Positions 14,413 through 32,000 of a DNA stretch of 32,000 nt are shown one piece after another. A program made the translations under genes and the position numbers. The first letter of the stretch is position 1. Every line of letters begins with the position of its first letter. A model generated the notes under the pieces. It had not been told where the DNA came from, did no database searches, and saw nothing but the letters and a program-made list of their open reading frames with translations. The stretch is from Candidatus Saccharimonadota bacterium (GTDB lineage: Archaea; Micrarchaeota; Micrarchaeia; Micrarchaeales; Micrarchaeaceae), in NCBI RefSeq assembly GCF_002214165.1, contig NZ_CP019964.1:720001-752000 (forward strand), read 5' to 3'.

Positions 14413-15435
14413 TTATATGCTATAGAGATTGGATAGGAATTCTGAGCTAGCTGGCTTGCTTTTATTGGCTGAAGGGTCGTACAATTTAGGCTTTACACCA
14501 GTTATTACGGAAACCACTTTGACCTGATCTCCAAGATCATTGGACAGTCTGGCGCCGAATATGACATTTGCCTTGTTGTCCATTCCTTCTGTCACTCCCT
14601 CTCCTAATCTGGTGGCATCCGCTATTGTAAGGTCCGGGCCTCCAGTTACATGCACCAAGGCACTCCTTGCGTTCTCCAATTCTGCATTGAGAAGAGGATG
14701 CTCTTTGTTGGAACGAATCGCTTTTTCAACCCTGTCTACACCTGAGCCGTAACCTATGCTTATCAATGCTGTACCACTATTTCCAAGAACGCTTTTTAAG
14801 TCGGCGAAATCGAGATTTATAAGGCTTGGCAGGCTTATCGTATCCGTTATGCCTTTTACTGAATTCAATATTACATTATCCACTATGCCAAGTGCTTTGT
14901 CAATTGGAAGGTTTGGGGCATAGCTCAACAGCTTCTCATTCTCAATTATTATCGTTGAATCTGAATTCTTGGAGAGCTTTTCTATTGACGCATCCGCACT
15001 TATTCTCCTGCTCCTTTCTAAGTGGAACGGGTAGGTGACAAAGGAAACTACAAGCGAACCTTGTTCTTTGCCTAATTTTGCCAGATATGGTATTGTCCCG
15101 CTTCCGGTTCCACCTCCCATTCCCGCAATCAAAAACAGTATATCGTACCCCTTTATCGCTGATCTTACCTCGTCTTCGCTTGATTCGGCAGCTTTCAGTG
15201 CTACTTCAGGGAACCCGCCTGCACCCAATCCGCGGGTTATGCTCTTGCCCAAGAGCAGCTTCTTCTGGGCATTTATTATGCTTAGGTGCTTTATGTCCGT
15301 ATTCATTGCTATCGTATCCGCGCTCTTGATGCCTGCATTGAATAGATGGTTGATTGCATTGCTGCCCATCCCTCCAAGACCTACGATTCCTATCTTGGCT
15401 GAAAGGTCATCAATTCTATCATCTGCAGGCATCAA
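14413..15435 (-). CDS. ftsZ: FtsZ paralog (downstream copy, 340 aa)
   Basis: 'GLGGMGSNAINHL', 'GKSITRGLGAGGFPE', tubulin signature 'GMGGGTGSGTIP'. The SD-like AAGGTGA lies 7 nt before the ATG. Confidence 0.9.
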   Translation of the reverse strand: MMPADDRIDDLSAKIGIVGLGGMGSNAINHLFNAGIKSADTIAMNTDIKHLSIINAQKKLLLGKSITRGLGAGGFPEVALKAAESSEDEVRSAIKGYDILFLIAGMGGGTGSGTIPYLAKLGKEQGSLVVSFVTYPFHLERSRRISADASIEKLSKNSDSTIIIENEKLLSYAPNLPIDKALGIVDNVILNSVKGITDTISLPSLINLDFADLKSVLGNSGTALISIGYGSGVDRVEKAIRSNKEHPLLNAELENARSALVHVTGGPDLTIADATRLGEGVTEGMDNKANVIFGARLSNDLGDQVKVVSVITGVKPKLYDPSANKSKPASSEFLSNLYSI

Positions 15436-15446
15436 AGTTCACCTTT

Positions 15447-16541
15447 TCATCCTATCATTTCCAGGTCGGAGTAAGGGTCGCTTGCAGATTCTCTCTGCTT
15501 TGTATCAAGCTTCCCTATTATGCTGGAACCCTTGACTCCCGTAACTATTGCGACAATTTCTATTCCATCATCAAATCCTGGAATTATCCTTGCGCCGAAC
15601 TTTACGTTTGCCTTAGGATCCATCCTCTCGGTTATTATCTCTCCAGCCTTTGTAGCATCTCCCAATGATAGCGAAGATCCGCCAGATACGTGTATTATTG
15701 CACCTCCTGCGCCTTCAAAGTCTACGTCAAGAAGCTTGTTCTTCAGTACGCTCTCTGCAGCGAGATTCACCTTGTCCGTGCCTCTTCCTGTTCCTATTGC
15801 TATGAAGCCTACATCGCCATGGCCCATTATAGATCTTACATCTGCAAAGTCTATGTTTATCATGCTTGGCTGTGTTATGGTCCATACCAGTCCTCCTATC
15901 GCTTTTGCTATTACCTCATCCGCCAATGCAAAAGCCTTATCCATAGGCAGATTTGGGACAAGCTGCACTAACCTGTTGTTGTCCAGTATTATGACGCTGT
16001 CGCTGTATTTCCTAAGCTCCTGGATTCCTTCTTCAGCCTTTACTTTCCTTACTCTTTCAAGATTGAAAGGATAAGTGACCATTGATATTACAATTGCCCC
16101 CTGGTCCTTTGCTATCTGTGCAGCTACTGGAAGTGCACCTGTAGCGGTTCCTCCTCCCATTCCTCCGCACAGGAATACCAACTGCGCATCCTGGAATTCC
16201 TTTTCTATCAAGGACCTATCGACTTCTGCAGCCTTCTTTCCTACTGCTGGATCACCGCCTGCACCCAATCCGCGGGTTATGCTCTTGCCTATCATTACCT
16301 TTCTAATGCGGTCATCAATTATCTTAAAATGCTGAGAATCTGTATTGAATGATACAAATTCAGTGCCTTTAACTCCAGCTTTTATAAGCCTGTTTACACT
16401 GTTTGCACCTCCTCCACCAAACCCTGCAGTAACAATCTTTATCTCTGAAGAACTGAATTCATCAGAAACTGCACCCTTATCTGCATTGTCGTCTCCCACA
16501 CTTGCGTTCCCACCTAGAAGGTCACTTACCAAATCTGTCAT
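15447..16541 (-). CDS. ftsZ: FtsZ paralog (upstream copy, 364 aa)
   Basis: 'GFGGGGANSVNRL', 'GKSITRGLGAGGDPA', 'GMGGGTATGALP'. There is an 11-nt gap to the downstream paralog. Confidence 0.92.
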   Translation of the reverse strand: MTDLVSDLLGGNASVGDDNADKGAVSDEFSSSEIKIVTAGFGGGGANSVNRLIKAGVKGTEFVSFNTDSQHFKIIDDRIRKVMIGKSITRGLGAGGDPAVGKKAAEVDRSLIEKEFQDAQLVFLCGGMGGGTATGALPVAAQIAKDQGAIVISMVTYPFNLERVRKVKAEEGIQELRKYSDSVIILDNNRLVQLVPNLPMDKAFALADEVIAKAIGGLVWTITQPSMINIDFADVRSIMGHGDVGFIAIGTGRGTDKVNLAAESVLKNKLLDVDFEGAGGAIIHVSGGSSLSLGDATKAGEIITERMDPKANVKFGARIIPGFDDGIEIVAIVTGVKGSSIIGKLDTKQRESASDPYSDLEMIG

Positions 16542-16646: not shown

Positions 16647-17288
16647 TTACTTTGGAATTTTGAATGAATTAATTATATAACCAGATTTATTCATAACGAC
16701 AATAAGATTGTAGTTGGACAGGTTTGAGCTGTAATTGAGCAGCCAAATGTTCCGGTAATATGCCTTAGGCTGCGTTAAGTTTAGGTTGCTATAGAACTTC
16801 GCAGACGCCGTTATGTTTTTTAAGCCGTAATCTGTTATGTAGCTGTTGAGGTCTGACGTGTTTTCTATATAGGCGCATGTTAATGCCACAGGGCCCATCG
16901 TTATATCGGAATATGGTGTTTCACAGGTTTGATTTCCATATATGGAGCAATCGCTTGAGTAAACGCTTATCACTGTGGGCACCAAAGTGACAGCTGGATA
17001 GTTGTAAGACTCTATCTCTAGGGTAGGGCATACGGAATTTGAGTAGTTTATCAGCCTTAATGTTATATCCCAGCTATCATTCGCAAGCTTTGATTTTGTT
17101 ATGTTCATTATCGTGATATTGGAATTGGGATTTTCCAGCTTAATGTCCTTTGTCACAATCGATAGGGCTTCATTCTCTGTAATATAATTGGGTTTTACCT
17201 TGACAAAATAGCTGTGTACTATGAATATTATTGCAATCACCGCTATCAGTATAATAGCCATGACCATTACTTTGAGAATTATGTCCAT
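16647..17288 (-). CDS. N-terminally membrane-anchored extracellular protein, sequon-rich, function unknown
   Basis: A single N-terminal TM helix ('VMVMAIILIAVIAIIFIV') is followed by a Cys-containing region with more than 10 N-x-S/T sequons. Confidence 0.55.
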   Translation of the reverse strand: MDIILKVMVMAIILIAVIAIIFIVHSYFVKVKPNYITENEALSIVTKDIKLENPNSNITIMNITKSKLANDSWDITLRLINYSNSVCPTLEIESYNYPAVTLVPTVISVYSSDCSIYGNQTCETPYSDITMGPVALTCAYIENTSDLNSYITDYGLKNITASAKFYSNLNLTQPKAYYRNIWLLNYSSNLSNYNLIVVMNKSGYIINSFKIPK

Positions 17289-25531: not shown

Positions 25532-28500
25532 TCATGTTAGATAAGAGTAGGTATCGAAATTTGCTGTCTCCGACATGTTGTTGTAAACCGTCACATTTAT
25601 TGTGTATGGAGGAGGGTTTGGCGTGTATGGTGGATGGTCTCCTGGATAACTATAACACCCATTGCCACTGCAGGTCCAGTTATTAAGGTAGTTTACATAA
25701 CAGGTGCGGCCACTGCAGCTTGGAGGCTTTTTGAGTAGCGCTTCTATTTCTATGGTGCTTCCGCAATTGACTTCTTCACTGCTTGGGGATACGGACCCCG
25801 GACCGGATGAGCTTAATCCAAGTTCATATGTTTTAAGGCTGAAAGTTGCAGCTTCTACTATAGGGCTTGACATCACAACAAAGGCAGATGTATATGGATA
25901 TGTGGTCTGCTGCTCTGGCCCACTCCAACAGTTATTTCCACTGCAGGTCCAACCATTAAATGTTGCACAGCTATTTGAAGTGGAATATGAAAGTGATATA
26001 TCAGAATATGGGGTTTCCCAATAAGTTGACGATGATGTGGTTGATCCTCCGGGTGAAGCAGTAGCTGTCCCATCACCAGATGGGCTTACTAGAAGTATTA
26101 ATGCGACATCGTAGTTCGCCTGCTCCATGAACGGTACAGTTGGAACTTTAACCGTCAAGGTTGTATTATATGTGTAGTAGGTACACAAAACTACATTACA
26201 CTCACCCTGAACCGTTGTGTAACAATCGCTGGATGAAATACCTGATGGACAATCAGACCCACCACAGGAATCATATTGAGTACACTGATTAGCAACATGG
26301 CTTGGATTATAATAGCCAGTCCAGTTGACAAACTTGTAGCCTGTATTGTTAACTTCTGAAAAAGTGATTGAAGATCCGGGGAAGTACCAGCCACTGCCAG
26401 GCGAAAGGGAGTAAGCTGCACCTGAAGGCGATGAGAGCTCAGTTAGGTATACATCGTAGTTGGCCTGCTCTTTGAAGTCCACACTTGGTACAGTCAAGCT
26501 GAATTGGGATAAAGTACTCTTCTCGTAGCCAGTCCAATTGACAAACTTATATCCTGTATTGTTCTTTCCGGATAAAGTGATTGAAGATCCGGGGAAGTAC
26601 CAGCCACTGCCAGGATTTAATGAGGAAACCCCACTTGATGGGTAGGAGAGCTCAGTTAGGTATACATCGTAGTTGGCCTGCTCCGTGAACGGTACTGTCG
26701 GAACTGTCATGCCAAATGAGGATGAAGTACTCTTCTCGTAGCCAGTCCAGTTGACAAACTTATATCCTGTGTTGTTCTTTCCGGATAAAGTGATCGAAGT
26801 TCCAGGTGCGTACCAGCCGCTGCCAGGTGATAATGAATAAGCCGCATTTGATGGGTATGAAAGCTCAGTTAGGTATACATCGTAGTTGGCCTGTTCGGTA
26901 AATGGTTCTGTCGGAACTGTCATGCCAAAGGATGAAGAAGTGCTGCCTTCATATCCTGTCCAGCCTATAAATAAGTATCCTGTATTGTTCGTCTCGGACA
27001 ATGTGATTGAATTTCCAGGGAAGTACCAGCCACTGCCAGGCGAAAGCGTCTTTGCACCCCCTGAAGGGAATGAGAGCTCTGTAAGGTATATATCGTAGTT
27101 GGCCTGCTCCGTGAAGTCTGTATTTGGAACTGCCATCGTGAAAGATGAAGAAGTGCTCTTCTCGTATCCTGTCCAATTGACAAACTTGTATCCTGTGTTG
27201 TTAGTCTCGGACAATGTTATTGATGAGTTTGGTAGATACCAGCCACTGCCAGGCGAAAGCTTCTTTGCACCTCCTGAAGGGAATGAGAGCTCAGTTAGGT
27301 ATACATCGTAATCAGCGGTTTCGTTGAAAGGAGAATTTGGTGCAGTCATTGTAAAGTTTGAAGAATTGCCGCTATCATATCCTACCCATTTCGCAAATTT
27401 GTATCCTGTTGTATTGGTCTCTGTGAAATACAGGGAAGCTCCGGGTGTTTCCCAGAAAATAGAGGATGAATTAGTTGATCCTCCTGGAGACACTGTTGCC
27501 TTTCCATCTCCGTGTTCATATACTGATAGTTTTAGGGCAACTGCGTATTCCGCAGTTTCCGTGAATGGGGTACTTGGCACAGTTATTGATAATTGGTTAT
27601 TGGTTGAGCTGAACTGGCCTGTCCAATTGACAAACTTGTAGCCTGTGTTGTTCACTTCTGTTAGTGTAATTGATGAATCCGGTGCGTACCATCCAGTTCC
27701 AGGTGAAAGCGTCTTTGCACCATTTGATGGTGATGAGAGCTCTGTAAGGTATACATCATAGTTGGCCTGCTCCGTGAAGTCTGTATTCGGCACTACCATT
27801 GTAAATGATGAGGATGCATTGTTCTCATATCCTGTCCATCCTGCAAACTTATATCCAGTATTATTTACTTCTGTTAGTGTAATTGATGAATCCGGTGCGT
27901 ACCAGCCGCTTCCGGGCAATAATGATGAAGCCGCACTTGAAGGTGATGCAAGTTCATTTAAATATACATCATATTCTGCAGTTTCGTTTATAGGATAATC
28001 CATTGTTACAGTTGGTGATGTGTTGTCTCCCGTATAGTTGCCTGTACCCAATCCGGAATATCCATAAAACTTGAATGTTGAATTTGCAGGTGACTCTCCT
28101 AGTGTTACCTTTGATCCATAAGATTCAGGATAACTTTTGAATGTTGATGAATTTGTGGATGTGCCAGAGGGAGTTGACGCGGTTATTGTCCCATCGCCTC
28201 CTGGGATTACTCTCAATGAAAGCATAGGGTCAAAATTTGCTGTCTCGTTTACTGGATTAGACATTATAATTGTTGGGGATTGGCTGTTTCCAGAATAACA
28301 TGTGCTTCCTATTGATGTGGATGCAGCACATGTCCAGTTTGCGAAAACCCATTCTTTTGGATTGGAGGATTTCGCGGAAAGCTGCAATGATGAATCCTTC
28401 TTGTAATACCCGTTCGAGGATAATGGGGACGATGATACAACACCTGAAGAATATGATGGATTGACATTTTCATTTAGCTTGTAGTAAGTTGTGTAATTGA

Positions 28501-29629
28501 ATGAAACTGTCGTTGAATTGCAGTATATTGGTATTGATCCTGTCGAATTGTAGTACTTTACGCCGTTTGATTCCGCATATGTGAAGTTCTCGTATGCCTC
28601 GTTTGATACCAGTGTAACCTGTGATGGCGTTGAGTAGTTAAGTTCGGAATTGCATATTGTGGTCCCAGTTGCATTCTTTGTGAATGTGGTGCTGTTGATT
28701 GGAGTTGTTATGGTAACCTTACCATAAGGGACATTGAATATCAAGTGGTACTGGGTTACAGGTGAAAAGTTTATGTATACGTAATGGCTTGTGTAATTTC
28801 CAAAAGTCGCATTCACTTTTATGTTGCCAATAGTTGTTCCATATACAAATGAGTGTGCGATTCCCTGCGACGAGGTAGATGCATAAGTAGGGAACAATGT
28901 TTCCTCATCTGGAACCTCTGTGAAATTCACAGTTGATCCTGCAAGAGGATATCCGAGGAATATGACATTTGCGGTCAGTTCGTCAGGATAATTATCAGCA
29001 GGCCATCTTCCGTTGTGACCACTTGATGCATTAAGTGAAATTGTCAATGAAGGCTTTACCACCAATGCGACATGTGCATTGAATTTTCCTGCATAAATCT
29101 GCTTTGGTGCATTTGTACATGAGGAAGAATTTGATAGTGCACAGTCATCAGAATTTAAATAAAGGTTTCCATATGCATAGGCATTTGTTGGTAAGTACGT
29201 CGACATATTTGCAATGCATATTATGGATCCTCCAGGAAGCACATAACTTGGATAGCAAGAATGGGTAACATTAACCTTGTTATATTCTACAGTAATTGAT
29301 GGATCTTTTATAGCGTAATCTTTGCTATTTGTAAGAAGCAGAGATATTGTAGATGTATGGGATATTGAATTTGATCCAAGTTCCATGTCCTCGCAGTTTG
29401 CTCCTGTTGTAAACGAGCAACTGTTTGGAATCACACTAGATGGGACCGCAACGAAAAAGTATAGGAGTGACACTATTATTGCAATTATAAGTATTGCCCA
29501 ACCATAAGTAACAAGGTATTCAAGAGCAGATTGCGCTTCACTGTGCTCTTTTATGGAGTCAGTTTCAATCTTTTTCTCTAGCCTTTTCATGCTCTTTTTG
29601 CTATCTCTCTTATTACGGCGATCCGCCAT
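25532..29629 (-). CDS. Giant (1365 aa) surface protein: class III (type IV pilin-like) signal peptide plus about 12 InlB-B-repeat-like (YxFxxW) beta domains
   Basis: 'AQSALEYLVTYGWAILIIAIIVSLLYF' (aa 32-58) matches the archaeal class III signal / pilin N-terminal motif. Downstream modules repeat as 'YDVYLTELS.PS....L.PGSGWY.P.SSITLSE.NNTGYKF.NWTGY.....F.M.VP...FTEQAN'. There is no C-terminal anchor. Sequons are dense. Confidence 0.85.
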   Translation of the reverse strand: MADRRNKRDSKKSMKRLEKKIETDSIKEHSEAQSALEYLVTYGWAILIIAIIVSLLYFFVAVPSSVIPNSCSFTTGANCEDMELGSNSISHTSTISLLLTNSKDYAIKDPSITVEYNKVNVTHSCYPSYVLPGGSIICIANMSTYLPTNAYAYGNLYLNSDDCALSNSSSCTNAPKQIYAGKFNAHVALVVKPSLTISLNASSGHNGRWPADNYPDELTANVIFLGYPLAGSTVNFTEVPDEETLFPTYASTSSQGIAHSFVYGTTIGNIKVNATFGNYTSHYVYINFSPVTQYHLIFNVPYGKVTITTPINSTTFTKNATGTTICNSELNYSTPSQVTLVSNEAYENFTYAESNGVKYYNSTGSIPIYCNSTTVSFNYTTYYKLNENVNPSYSSGVVSSSPLSSNGYYKKDSSLQLSAKSSNPKEWVFANWTCAASTSIGSTCYSGNSQSPTIIMSNPVNETANFDPMLSLRVIPGGDGTITASTPSGTSTNSSTFKSYPESYGSKVTLGESPANSTFKFYGYSGLGTGNYTGDNTSPTVTMDYPINETAEYDVYLNELASPSSAASSLLPGSGWYAPDSSITLTEVNNTGYKFAGWTGYENNASSSFTMVVPNTDFTEQANYDVYLTELSSPSNGAKTLSPGTGWYAPDSSITLTEVNNTGYKFVNWTGQFSSTNNQLSITVPSTPFTETAEYAVALKLSVYEHGDGKATVSPGGSTNSSSIFWETPGASLYFTETNTTGYKFAKWVGYDSGNSSNFTMTAPNSPFNETADYDVYLTELSFPSGGAKKLSPGSGWYLPNSSITLSETNNTGYKFVNWTGYEKSTSSSFTMAVPNTDFTEQANYDIYLTELSFPSGGAKTLSPGSGWYFPGNSITLSETNNTGYLFIGWTGYEGSTSSSFGMTVPTEPFTEQANYDVYLTELSYPSNAAYSLSPGSGWYAPGTSITLSGKNNTGYKFVNWTGYEKSTSSSFGMTVPTVPFTEQANYDVYLTELSYPSSGVSSLNPGSGWYFPGSSITLSGKNNTGYKFVNWTGYEKSTLSQFSLTVPSVDFKEQANYDVYLTELSSPSGAAYSLSPGSGWYFPGSSITFSEVNNTGYKFVNWTGYYNPSHVANQCTQYDSCGGSDCPSGISSSDCYTTVQGECNVVLCTYYTYNTTLTVKVPTVPFMEQANYDVALILLVSPSGDGTATASPGGSTTSSSTYWETPYSDISLSYSTSNSCATFNGWTCSGNNCWSGPEQQTTYPYTSAFVVMSSPIVEAATFSLKTYELGLSSSGPGSVSPSSEEVNCGSTIEIEALLKKPPSCSGRTCYVNYLNNWTCSGNGCYSYPGDHPPYTPNPPPYTINVTVYNNMSETANFDTYSYLT
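26114..27973 (-). repeat. In-frame tandem coding repeats, unit 213 nt (71 aa), 8 units with two expanded variants
   Basis: The marker '(G/A)AGCTC' recurs at 26435, 26648, 26861, 27074 and 27287 with an exact 213-nt spacing. In protein coordinates the units start at aa 553, 624, 695, 774, 845, 916, 987 and 1058. Confidence 0.95.
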
Positions 29630-29644
29630 TTATATCTTATATAA

Positions 29645-29660
29645 GATTATATTTATATTA
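29645..29660 (-). promoter_or_regulatory. TATA-box candidate for the giant surface-protein gene (implies a leaderless or short-leader mRNA)
   Basis: On the minus strand, 'ATAAATATAATC' lies about 20-30 nt upstream of the ATG at 29629. No SD-like sequence intervenes. Confidence 0.3.
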
Positions 29661-31225: not shown

Positions 31226-31740
31226 TTGATGCACCTAAATACAAGAAGAATTCAGCTTCGAGAATTAATGCAGGTACCTTAACAACGTTTAATTTTTTGA
31301 GGTGATCTATCCGCAGGTTCCCCTACGGATACCTTGTTATACCTTAGCCCTCCTCGCGAAACCCTAACTCGAAAATGCCTAATGGCATCGCCTCGTTAAA
31401 ACCTCACTTGGGTGACTTGGTAGGCAGTGTGTGCAAGGAGCAGGGACAAATTCACCGCTCGATAGTGACAAGCGATTACTAGGGATTCCATCTTCATGAG
31501 GGCGAGTTGCAGCCCTCAATCCGAACTTAGGTCAGTTTTAGGGGATTTGCTTTGCCTTTCGGCATTGCGTCCCATTGTGCTGATCTTTGTATGCCGCGTG
31601 TAGCCCGGGAGATTCGGAGCATACTGACGTATCGTCGCTCTCTCCTTCCTCCTCTTTAAACAGAGGCGGTCTCAACAGAGTGCTCAACCTATCTCTAAGC
31701 TGGTGGCAACTGTTGACAAAAGTCTCGCTCGTTTCCGGGT

Positions 31741-31998
31741 TCAATGAATGACACGTGCAACCTTTAAGCTATAACCCTTTATAAGTGCTATAAACAGATT
31801 AGGGTTCAGCATAAATGATTTACTCTTTCCATTTGAATGTATGTTGAGCTTTTCCAATAATAGGGAATCACCCGCATCCAAACGATTGATATAAATCCTG
31901 CCATTGCTAGTCCTTCCTCCATTGTAATCAAATATCGCTGCAAAATATGCAGATGAATATTCATTCAGGTATTTGAATATAAAGGATTTCCTTTCTAA
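31741..31998 (-). CDS. C-terminal 85 aa of an intron-encoded ORF, LAGLIDADG-like homing endonuclease candidate (N-terminus outside the window)
   Basis: Hand translation gives ...FIFKYLNEYSSAYFAAIFDYNGGRTSNGRIYINRLDAGDSLLLEKLNIHSNGKSKSFMLNPNLFIALIKGYSLKVARVIH*. The frame is open to the window edge. 'YFAAIFDYNGG' followed by beta-strand-like segments resembles a degenerate second LAGLIDADG motif. Confidence 0.4.
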   Translation of the reverse strand, partial: LERKSFIFKYLNEYSSAYFAAIFDYNGGRTSNGRIYINRLDAGDSLLLEKLNIHSNGKSKSFMLNPNLFIALIKGYSLKVARVIH

Positions 31999-32000
31999 GG
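31746..32000 (-). other. Putative 16S rRNA intron (the 3' boundary is good to about 30 nt; the 5' part is outside the window)
   Basis: rRNA-like sequence stops just upstream of the AACGAGCGAGAC block. It is replaced by AT-rich sequence carrying a long open frame. Confidence 0.55.

Follow-up and report, generated by a model that had tools for sequence, protein, structure and literature searches.

What kind of protein joins an N-terminus of the type IV pilin kind to a long string of β-domains, and what might it do for the cell that makes it? The question is raised by a gene on the minus strand of the 32,000-nucleotide stretch of DNA analyzed here (contig NZ_CP019964.1, positions 720,001 to 752,000; hereafter the window). 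The gene is one unbroken open reading frame (ORF) of 1365 aa with an ATG start. Its product is 100% identical to a database protein, ASI14087.1 / WP_124216905.1, named "cell surface protein", of Candidatus Mancarchaeum acidiphilum Mia14, which has a chromosome of 952,257 bp. Mia14 is a Micrarchaeon (DPANN) and an ectosymbiont that grows only alongside the wall-less Thermoplasmatales archaeon Cuniculiplasma divulgatum (Mia14 genome paper). The first-pass annotation of the window, made from the letters alone, had suspected a small-celled or episymbiotic archaeon as the source, and Mia14 is an episymbiotic DPANN archaeon.

We explain the protein best as a modular type IV pilin (a reading to which we assign a probability of roughly 0.68), in which a complete pilin module bears a long adhesive rod. 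It has the two parts by which Raynaud et al. 2021 define such proteins, an N-terminal pilin module and domains foreign to pilus biology. Established below are the architecture itself, the head's homology to pilins that stand alone or are encoded in operons, the lack of a second anchor and an excess of N-glycosylation sequons. Bacterial modular pilins have been established experimentally, and a position at the pilus tip has been proposed for them (PMC8179133); bacteria are so far the only organisms in which experiment has established such proteins. The parts of the gene are as follows.

25532..29629, minus strand: complete gene of the modular pilin-like surface protein, from the ORF list and the 100% identical database protein
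29650..29657, minus strand: TATA-like element TATAAATA, read from the sequence, 21–28 nt upstream of the ATG
29534..29629, minus strand: leader peptide, aa 1–32, with 11 Lys/Arg and 7 Asp/Glu, ending Glu-Ala before the predicted prepilin-peptidase site A32/Q33
29432..29533, minus strand: mature N-terminus and hydrophobic α1 helix, aa 33–66 (QSALEYLVTYGWAILIIAIIVSLLYFFVAVPSSV), from alignments, AlphaFold2 (AF2) and identity to operon pilins
29015..29431, minus strand: pilin globular β-domain, aa 67–205, from invariant Cys columns, end-to-end alignment, AF2 and a match to AapB
28754..29014, minus strand: Big_1-like immunoglobulin (Ig) domain, aa 206–292, from a sub-cutoff Pfam match, Foldseek and its occurrence in the family
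28487..28753, minus strand: third β-domain, aa 293–381 (C326, C370), from AF2 β-strands at aa 294–391 with a predicted local distance difference test score (pLDDT) of ~57–87
27971..28486, minus strand: divergent InlB-B-type repeats R1–R2, aa 382–553, from a homologue-derived hidden Markov model (HMM; aa 382–466, 2e-20; aa 483–553, 5e-14)
26114..27970, minus strand: eight canonical InlB-B / Flg_new_2 repeats R3–R10, ~71 aa each, aa 554–1172, from Pfam, HMM and the DNA period
26165..26302, minus strand: Cys-rich insert inside R10 with 6 Cys, aa ~1110–1155, from Cys positions, repeat alignment and a gap in the HMM match
25535..26113, minus strand: divergent Cys-containing repeats R11–R12, aa 1173–1365, at the distal end, from the homologue HMM (aa 1188–1263, 4e-12; aa 1273–1329, 1e-6)

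The N-Terminal Signal

The N-terminus of the protein reads MADRRNKRDSKKSMKRLEKKIETDSIKEHSEA up to the predicted cleavage site and QSALEYLVTYGWAILIIAIIVSLLYFFVAVPS beyond it, the junction being HSEA/QSAL. In the AF2 model the leader (aa 1–33) is disordered, with pLDDT below 50, and is followed by a helix of ~33 residues at aa 35–66. This helix lies in the single hydrophobic segment of the protein, aa ~34–69 (in Kyte-Doolittle windows of 19 residues, values above 1.6 are confined to those starting at aa 34–51). The hydropathy profile shows a hydrophilic C-terminus, and the protein therefore has no C-terminal anchor, in agreement with what had been proposed at the outset.

Five residues of the head, E37, Y38, Y42, G43 and P63, are invariant in an alignment of 12 sequences of the subfamily to which the protein belongs (A1), and E37, Y42 and G43 are still invariant in a wider alignment of 21 sequences (A2). 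Numbered from the cleavage site, Gln at +1, Glu at +5 and Tyr or Phe at +6 are kept in 23/23 relatives with a leader and in 105/105 relatives from an exhaustive search (those among its best 150 matches). Position -1 is Ala, Gly or Ser in 86 of these 105 proteins (82%), and position -2 is Lys or Arg in 73 (70%). In type IV pilins Glu +5 serves the packing of subunit against subunit.

The head was compared with the marks of known pilin signals. As expected of a class III signal peptide, the charged leader has a small residue (Ala) at the cleavage site, and a hydrophobic stretch of at least ~20 residues follows directly after it. Gln +1 and Glu +5 are the signature of the Epd pilins that EppA processes in Methanococcus maripaludis, and Glu +5 with Tyr +6 is the Flp motif (PMC3875500). 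The target has both Epd residues (Q33, E37) and, with A/QSALEY, also the Glu and Tyr of the Flp/Tad motif G/XXXXEY. It is a full member of neither class, however. Epd pilins are 67 to ~200 aa long, with 5–13-aa leaders that end in Gly and no Tyr at +6 (PMC3875500), whereas the target has a 32-aa leader that ends in Ala, Tyr +6 as in Flp, a giant cargo and no match to PF04021 (DUF361). Flp/Tad pilins are ~50–80 aa when mature and have no globular domain, compared with the 1333 aa of the mature target; even its stand-alone relatives are 160–230 aa long and possess a β-domain. The motif that the first-pass annotation had quoted is thus present, conserved in all 23 and all 105 relatives, and, as described below, shared with pilins encoded in operons. 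These observations support a pilin-type signal, beyond a generic membrane anchor, and cleavage between A32 and Q33 is predicted.

The Globular Domain and Its Homology to Pilins

Three Cys pairs, C71/C79, C125/C138 and C163/C171, are conserved within aa 67–205 in the alignment of 12 relatives, and the whole of aa 33–205 aligns end to end with stand-alone proteins of ~200 aa. Searched exhaustively, a profile of this module matched 8805 cluster representatives (E<=1e-3), which range from stand-alone proteins of pilin size to giants. A word-indexed search gave 3510 proteins at E<=1e-5, and its best new matches are unannotated proteins of 160–230 aa, some of them tandem neighbours. The sole PDB entry that the profile matched by sequence was AapB (8Q30), the subunit of the Aap type IV pilus of Sulfolobus acidocaldarius, and this match takes in both the helix and the β-domain (E=0.0019).

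Modelling of the pilin head with AlphaFold had been recommended in the first-pass annotation. In the AF2 model of the whole N-terminal region the β-domain is confident as far as aa ~202, and a separate model of aa 33–210 gave a helix and an 8-strand β-sandwich with a pLDDT of 84.9. When the isolated head model was submitted to Foldseek, generic Ig-like β-sandwiches were returned with low TM-scores, FlaF/FlaG and AapB being among many others. The globular domain after α1 is homologous to that of stand-alone, operon-encoded and solved pilins, and this homology supports aa 33–205 as a true pilin module.

Pilus Machinery and Operon Context

Mia14 has two type IV pilus loci, MIA14_0170–0177 and MIA14_0252–0260, of which the second includes seven class III signal peptide pilins; MIA14_0570 is its one A24 prepilin peptidase, and it lacks an archaellum (Mia14 genome paper). 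The annotated pilins of Mia14 are MIA14_0118 and MIA14_0254–0260. A genome devoid of pilus machinery or of a prepilin peptidase had been named at the outset as an observation that would speak against a pilin-like protein. With two pilus loci and an A24 peptidase in the published annotation, that objection falls away.

Other genomes place the head in pilus operons. We used a degenerate DNA pattern for Q-S-A-x-E-Y-x-x-T-Y-G-W-A, which carries ~48 bits and for which well under one chance match is expected in the genome collection. It was found in at least 120 stretches, nearly all from DPANN bins; those listed include Micrarchaeota, Iainarchaeum, Parvarchaeota/ARMAN-4, Nanoarchaeota/Woesearchaeota and the cultured Micrarchaeum A_DKE, and the Mia14 genome is not among them. 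Two further Micrarchaeota genomes (L019 and L007) have head-bearing genes of 133 and 154 aa, respectively, directly downstream of a T2SSE ATPase gene and two T2SSF/TadC genes. The 154-aa pilin of L007 is identical to the target at 15/15 of the first mature residues and the L019 pilin at 14/15, and a gene adjoining the latter scores 23.2 bits on PF04021 Class_IIIsignal, just under the cutoff of 23.7. A strict Walker A pattern for secretion ATPases found nothing in the 120 loci; a looser one gave three candidates, and the two that were tested were both confirmed by Pfam.

An ATPase gene with two platform genes is the system 1 (Epd-like) layout, reported from methanogens, Thermococcales and DPANN (2026 preprint). 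The relatives of the target resemble the Epd/EppA "system 1" pilins of M. maripaludis in their loci, with an ATPase and two TadC genes, as well as in Gln +1 and Glu +5. Scattered gene positions are a further likeness: pilin genes are commonly dispersed over the chromosome, and those of M. maripaludis occupy four or more loci (PMC3875500). No Mancarchaeum-named small pilin is among the 120 word-indexed matches listed, and the A_DKE cultivation paper says nothing about pili.

The Rod

A Cys-containing region of ~320 aa had been noted ahead of the repeats. It is real, with 8 Cys at aa 71–370, and it splits into the pilin β-domain, a Big_1-like Ig domain and the third β-domain. Pfam Big_1 (PF02369) matches the second of these with 28.3 bits (E=1.9e-6), below its gathering cutoff of 34.9, and AF2 places an Ig domain at aa 216–290. 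When a 556-aa model was submitted to Foldseek, only generic tandem-Ig fibrillar adhesins were returned (intimin D00-D0, invasin, PitA and an ice adhesin). The third β-domain has no Pfam match.

The remainder of the protein consists of InlB-B-type repeats, seen in the DNA as a tandem array with a 213-nt period. The literal pattern GY.F..W.G occurs exactly 8 times, and Pfam Flg_new_2 (PF18998, divergent InlB B-repeat) matches 8 stretches with 120.4 bits, compared with a gathering cutoff of 23.6 (E=3e-35). Against an HMM of their own, the canonical repeats R3–R10 have E-values of 1e-27 to 4e-45. The four flanking units are not detected by Pfam when scanned alone. A profile built solely from the repeats of homologues, with the target left out, nevertheless picks out 12 repeats when run against it (independent E-values between 2e-20 and 1e-6), and the first-pass estimate of about 12 repeats is therefore correct: eight are canonical and four divergent. 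Among the latter, R1 bears a Cys loop of the form W-T-C...C-Y-S-G. The 24 Cys of the whole protein are clustered in the N-terminal 450 aa and the last 260 aa.

The protein is rich in Ser, Thr and Asn and has 45 N-x-S/T sequons, where shuffled sequences have 27.5 +/- 4.3 and 0/2000 shuffles reached 45. The heavy sequon load claimed earlier is thus borne out; the accompanying statement that NNT and NWT occur in nearly every repeat was too strong, NNT being present in 7/8 and NWT in 5/8 of the canonical repeats. AglB is listed in every DPANN genome compared (Mia14 genome paper), and an N-glycosylation system is expressed in a related Micrarchaeon. Given these two observations and the sequon excess, N-glycosylation of the rod is plausible.

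A Constant Carrier with Exchangeable Cargo

How unusual is so long a protein behind such a head? Among 116 complete ORFs with the head, sampled from genomes without bias, the median mature length is 282 aa, 41% are shorter than 200 aa and 2/116 reach at least 700 aa. The target is thus an extreme case, as first supposed, although the expectation that heads of this type normally sit on small pilins needs some qualification. In the target's own subfamily, which has the three-disulfide module, large proteins are common: among its best 150 matches the median is 552 aa and 21 proteins are at least 1000 aa long. None of the 102 relatives longer than 400 aa among these matches has a C-terminal anchor.

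A Big_1-like domain stands right after the pilin module in 41/45 long members (E<=1e-3), and what follows varies. InlB-B repeats make up the cargo beyond Big_1 in 14/45 long members; other long members carry β-propellers, Kelch, Gly-rich or Hint-type domains or DUF2341, and more distant head-bearing proteins carry LamG, DUF2341 or PT-HINT. In its architecture the family joins an unchanging carrier to cargo that can be exchanged, following the same logic as the bacterial "modular pilins".

Mia14 itself has a second copy, ASI13657.1 (P0003), of 1577 aa. Residues 186–485 of the target (window 28175–29074) form a 300-aa run that is 100% identical between the two proteins, and the flanks of this run are roughly 80–96% identical. 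After aa ~1100 the paralogues diverge wholly: ASI13657.1 ends in a Kelch propeller and the target in Cys-rich InlB-like repeats. From the identical run and the unrelated C-termini, the sequences suggest recent gene conversion or recombination, with exchange of cargo, between dispersed adhesin genes of Mia14. A syntenic metagenome orthologue of the target is 80% identical to it, while the housekeeping neighbours are 92–99% identical; by this sequence comparison the gene is evolving moderately fast, though it is not the fastest of the region.

We tentatively extend these findings to a wider proposal, which we regard as possible but more doubtful than the modular pilin itself. The target may belong to a very large, DPANN-wide family in which a three-disulfide pilin module, a Big_1 "adaptor" and interchangeable cargo would form the host-recognition repertoire of ectosymbiotic archaea, swappable pilus-tip adhesins setting the host range. 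The cargo would in that case comprise InlB-B arrays, β-propellers, Kelch, PKD, LamG, DUF2341 and Hint domains, and recombination between paralogues would swap cargo within a genome, a scheme that the two Mia14 copies fit.

Several further observations were made on relatives of the head. Three relatives, P0006 (L004 10001–17098), P0009 and P0027, have the same head and Hint/Vint/PT-HINT ends, and in some proteins of this kind the Hint modules are duplicated. Self-cleaving proteins and polymorphic toxins typically contain such domains, and judging from these sequences some pilin-carried cargo might be released or processed autocatalytically. In several Micrarchaeota loci (L052 1585–3458, L013, L033, L071 and L079), two or three head-bearing genes lie on the same strand ~900 bp apart, a spacing that suggests tandem arrays of ~300-aa pilin-like genes. 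A DPANN-type head also begins a LamG protein of 317 aa from a bin that bears the name Candidatus Saccharimonadales, a bacterium of the Candidate Phyla Radiation (CPR) (L032, DATJMH010000029.1), and it occurs in several bins labelled Marsarchaeota (L009, L033, L035 and L073). These occurrences could reflect mis-binning or horizontal transfer between co-occurring ultrasmall organisms.

Proposed Mechanism

On the modular pilin reading, the precursor would enter the membrane by its class III signal peptide, and the single A24 prepilin peptidase of Mia14 would cut after A32 and free Q33 of the Epd/Flp-like head, as the conservation of the motif suggests. The α1 helix and the disulfide-stabilized β-domain (aa 33–205) would then make a true pilin module, a step for which homology speaks, to be taken up by one of the two Mia14 pilus machineries, likely the one of "system 1" layout (ATPase plus two TadC genes). 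The module would sit at the pilus tip, which we think most likely, or would stay in the membrane by its α1 helix. We favour the tip over the shaft because ~1160 further residues cannot pack in a filament shaft.

The rod, built from a Big_1-like Ig domain, a further β-domain and the 12 InlB-B repeats, would probably be N-glycosylated and, by an estimate rather than a computation, roughly 40–50 nm long. It could reach past the surface layer (S-layer) to the wall-less host Cuniculiplasma or to other cells. An obvious candidate for the ligand is the glycoprotein-covered membrane of the wall-less host. This scheme predicts all of its elements: cleavage, assembly, tip location, glycosylation and ligand.

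Weighing the Alternatives

Several results weigh against a modular pilin. The leader, at 32 aa, is far longer than the family median of 14 aa, and the target has Glu at -2, where Lys or Arg is usual. The class III and pilin N-terminal profiles PF04021 Class_IIIsignal and PF07790 Pilin_N (Pfam) and TIGR02537 (NCBIfam) gave no match at E<=10 with the N-termini of the target and three relatives. The predicted fold of the head is consistent with a pilin but does not discriminate. There are no pilus genes in the 32-kb window, where the target is an orphan gene among housekeeping genes, and none within 10 kb of the relatives P0029 and P0006. The orphan position is no argument against a pilin, since pilin genes of M. 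maripaludis lie at four or more loci. The missing profile matches, the long leader and the Glu at -2 would suit an ordinary uncleaved signal anchor, that is, a type II membrane protein that resembles pilins only in its hydrophobicity, and when the isolated N-terminus was scanned against Pfam the weak matches, all that was found, were to unrelated transmembrane families. We consider this very unlikely. Gln +1, Glu +5 and Tyr +6 are invariant, and TYGWA nearly so, over thousands of proteins, a conservation not expected of a simple anchor. What is more, the homology runs through the β-domain to stand-alone proteins of pilin size, pilus operons contain genes with this head, and the module profile matches a solved pilin, AapB.

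A stronger competitor, though still an unlikely one, is that the protein is processed but held in the cytoplasmic membrane by α1, a placement also proposed for the class III sugar-binding proteins of the Sulfolobus bindosome, and stands free as an adhesive fibril through the S-layer, the pilin module serving as anchor and sorting device. This was already named in the first-pass annotation. It accords with the orphan position of the gene outside pilus loci and with a cargo of ~1160 aa, far too big for the filament shaft; a rod of tens of nm would also span the 20–25 nm pseudoperiplasm measured in a related Micrarchaeon. The computed results are as compatible with display at the tip. A mere anchor would have no need of the entire globular β-domain, which is conserved with its three invariant Cys pairs; nor does it account for the invariance of Glu +5, the residue of subunit packing, or for a head that is the same as in operon-encoded pilins. 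The conserved domain and Glu +5 favour a protein competent to assemble. Least probable of all, in our view, is a structural role in the S-layer or envelope of Mia14 instead of one in adhesion. The protein is large and, like many S-layer glycoproteins, rich in Ser, Thr, Asn and sequons, and the Mia14 genome paper files several large strain-specific "surface proteins" under surface-layer architecture. However, the S-layer protein of Micrarchaeota belongs to another family (PF05123, ~101 kDa, in 38/49 genomes). The Pfam matches of the target do not include this N-terminal S-layer domain, and identity with the SLP_Mh family was rejected because the two families differ. For its S-layer Mia14 has another gene, MIA14_0342. 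Small β-domains strung in a line are typical of fibrillar adhesins, as the Foldseek matches indicate, and a C-terminal cargo that is freely swapped among relatives is ill suited to a protein that forms a lattice.

Comparison with Known Systems

The closest parallels are the modular pilins of bacteria. PilB and PilC of Streptococcus sanguinis have been placed at the filament tip on steric arguments, and the survey of modular pilins includes an 860-aa example with 12 repeats in Candidatus Falkowbacteria of the CPR, another lineage of ultrasmall episymbionts (PMC8179133). That survey did not cover archaea, and the target is known here from sequence alone. Unlike the bacterial proteins, the target is archaeal and has the Gln +1, Glu +5, Tyr +6 head in place of the N-methylation motif IPR012902, to which a match is not expected; its globular domain folds as an Ig-like β-sandwich and has three Cys pairs, and its cargo of ~1160 aa is much longer. 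The type IVb initiator minor pilins CofB and TcpB have a pilin module followed by β-repeat and β-sandwich domains displayed at the tip (as summarized in PMC8179133), as proposed for the target; they are bacterial, ~500 aa long, trimeric and encoded in the pilus operon, and they have no sequence relationship to it.

In archaea, class III adhesins have been predicted at pilus tips (DUF2341/PilY-like; Makarova, Koonin and Albers 2016, PMC4858521), and these are large secreted or pilin-like proteins. Like them, some proteins with the target's type of head carry DUF2341, including one in Micrarchaeum A_DKE. The published adhesins differ from the target in that they lie in pilus loci, have other cargo and come from non-DPANN archaea, whereas the target is an orphan with Big_1 and InlB-B domains. 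The A_DKE protein has 552 aa, with the same head fused to DUF2341 (L028 2653–4308, Candidatus Micrarchaeum sp. A_DKE, NZ_CP060530.1). AapB (8Q30), the solved pilin matched by the module profile, is a 141-aa major pilin that has no cargo and lacks Glu +5 and Gln +1; its identity to the target in the structural alignment is 14%, a weak resemblance.

Proteins with InlB B-repeats (Flg_new, Flg_new_2) in Listeria and Bacteroides have the same repeat family in tandem arrays on the cell surface. In these bacteria the arrays are exported by a Sec signal and held by LPXTG, GW or T9SS anchors, whereas in the target the array hangs from a pilin module and several repeats have Cys loops and conserved sequons. 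The sugar-binding proteins of the Sulfolobus bindosome are non-filament proteins that have class III signal peptides and need a pilus-like assembly system; they bind solutes, have no globular pilin domain and are unrelated to the target in sequence.

Significance

Large adhesins with class III signal peptides were predicted earlier in archaeal pilus loci (PMC4858521) and are mentioned in general terms in a 2026 preprint, and the Mia14 genome paper, which counts eight surface proteins, links surface proteins and LamG proteins to pili. The architecture had been called uncharacterized in the first-pass annotation, and indeed we found no description in the literature of the DPANN family, of the pilin–Big_1–cargo layout or of the target as a pilin fusion. 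If our reading is correct, the target extends to archaea the "modular pilin" concept, which has been surveyed only in bacteria.

The target, its paralogue and their relatives are concrete candidates for the contact by which DPANN archaea recognize and attach to their hosts. Pili-like connections between ARMAN and Thermoplasmatales cells have been imaged. The pilin module ties each candidate to type IV pilus machinery, and the distal domains of the rod differ between paralogues and species. There is a parallel with CPR bacteria, other ultrasmall episymbionts, which use type IV pili to attach to their hosts. Because Mia14 is kept in co-culture and A_DKE is cultured, antibody labelling, surface shearing with proteomics, and cryo-electron tomography are feasible, and A_DKE, with its DUF2341 protein behind the same head, offers a second experimental system for pilin-fused adhesins.

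Other Features of the Window

The position of TATAAATA upstream of the target is consistent with a leaderless transcript that begins at the first ATG. Plus-strand ORFs inside the gene (25704–28464, 64–106 aa, three near-copies of which start MACSV) were examined and dismissed as antisense shadows of the 213-nt repeat, with no support as genes.

The remaining genes of the window are archaeal housekeeping genes: PolD DP1 and DP2, PolX, FEN1, two FtsZ, Rad50, L10e, S8e, Dph2, a pyrophosphatase, a tRNA-Arg and the 3' part of a 16S rRNA gene. The last lies at 31297–32000 on the minus strand (341 bits) and has a 262-nt insertion in place of 10 model positions (model ~1030; window ~31.72–31.98 kb), perhaps an rRNA intron or expansion segment. 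A 68-aa ORF within this rRNA gene (31538–31744) is probably spurious.

A minus-strand gene at 16647–17288 encodes a protein of 213 aa that begins with a hydrophobic segment, has many N-x-S/T sequons and matches nothing in Pfam. It is 84% conserved in the syntenic contig L001 and is another small surface protein, probably glycosylated. At the edge of the window, a 233-aa ORF on the plus strand (17–718) looks by eye like the C-terminal part of a TnpB/OrfB-type transposon nuclease, with a CxxC...CxxC zinc ribbon. Next to it are an ORF (702–2057) that, again by eye, is a putative multi-pass membrane transporter and, at 2171–2244, a tRNA-Arg(CCG). The two FtsZ-like paralogues lie back to back on the minus strand, at 14413–15435 (340 aa) and 15447–16541 (364 aa), and the second of them is 97.5% identical in a related strain.

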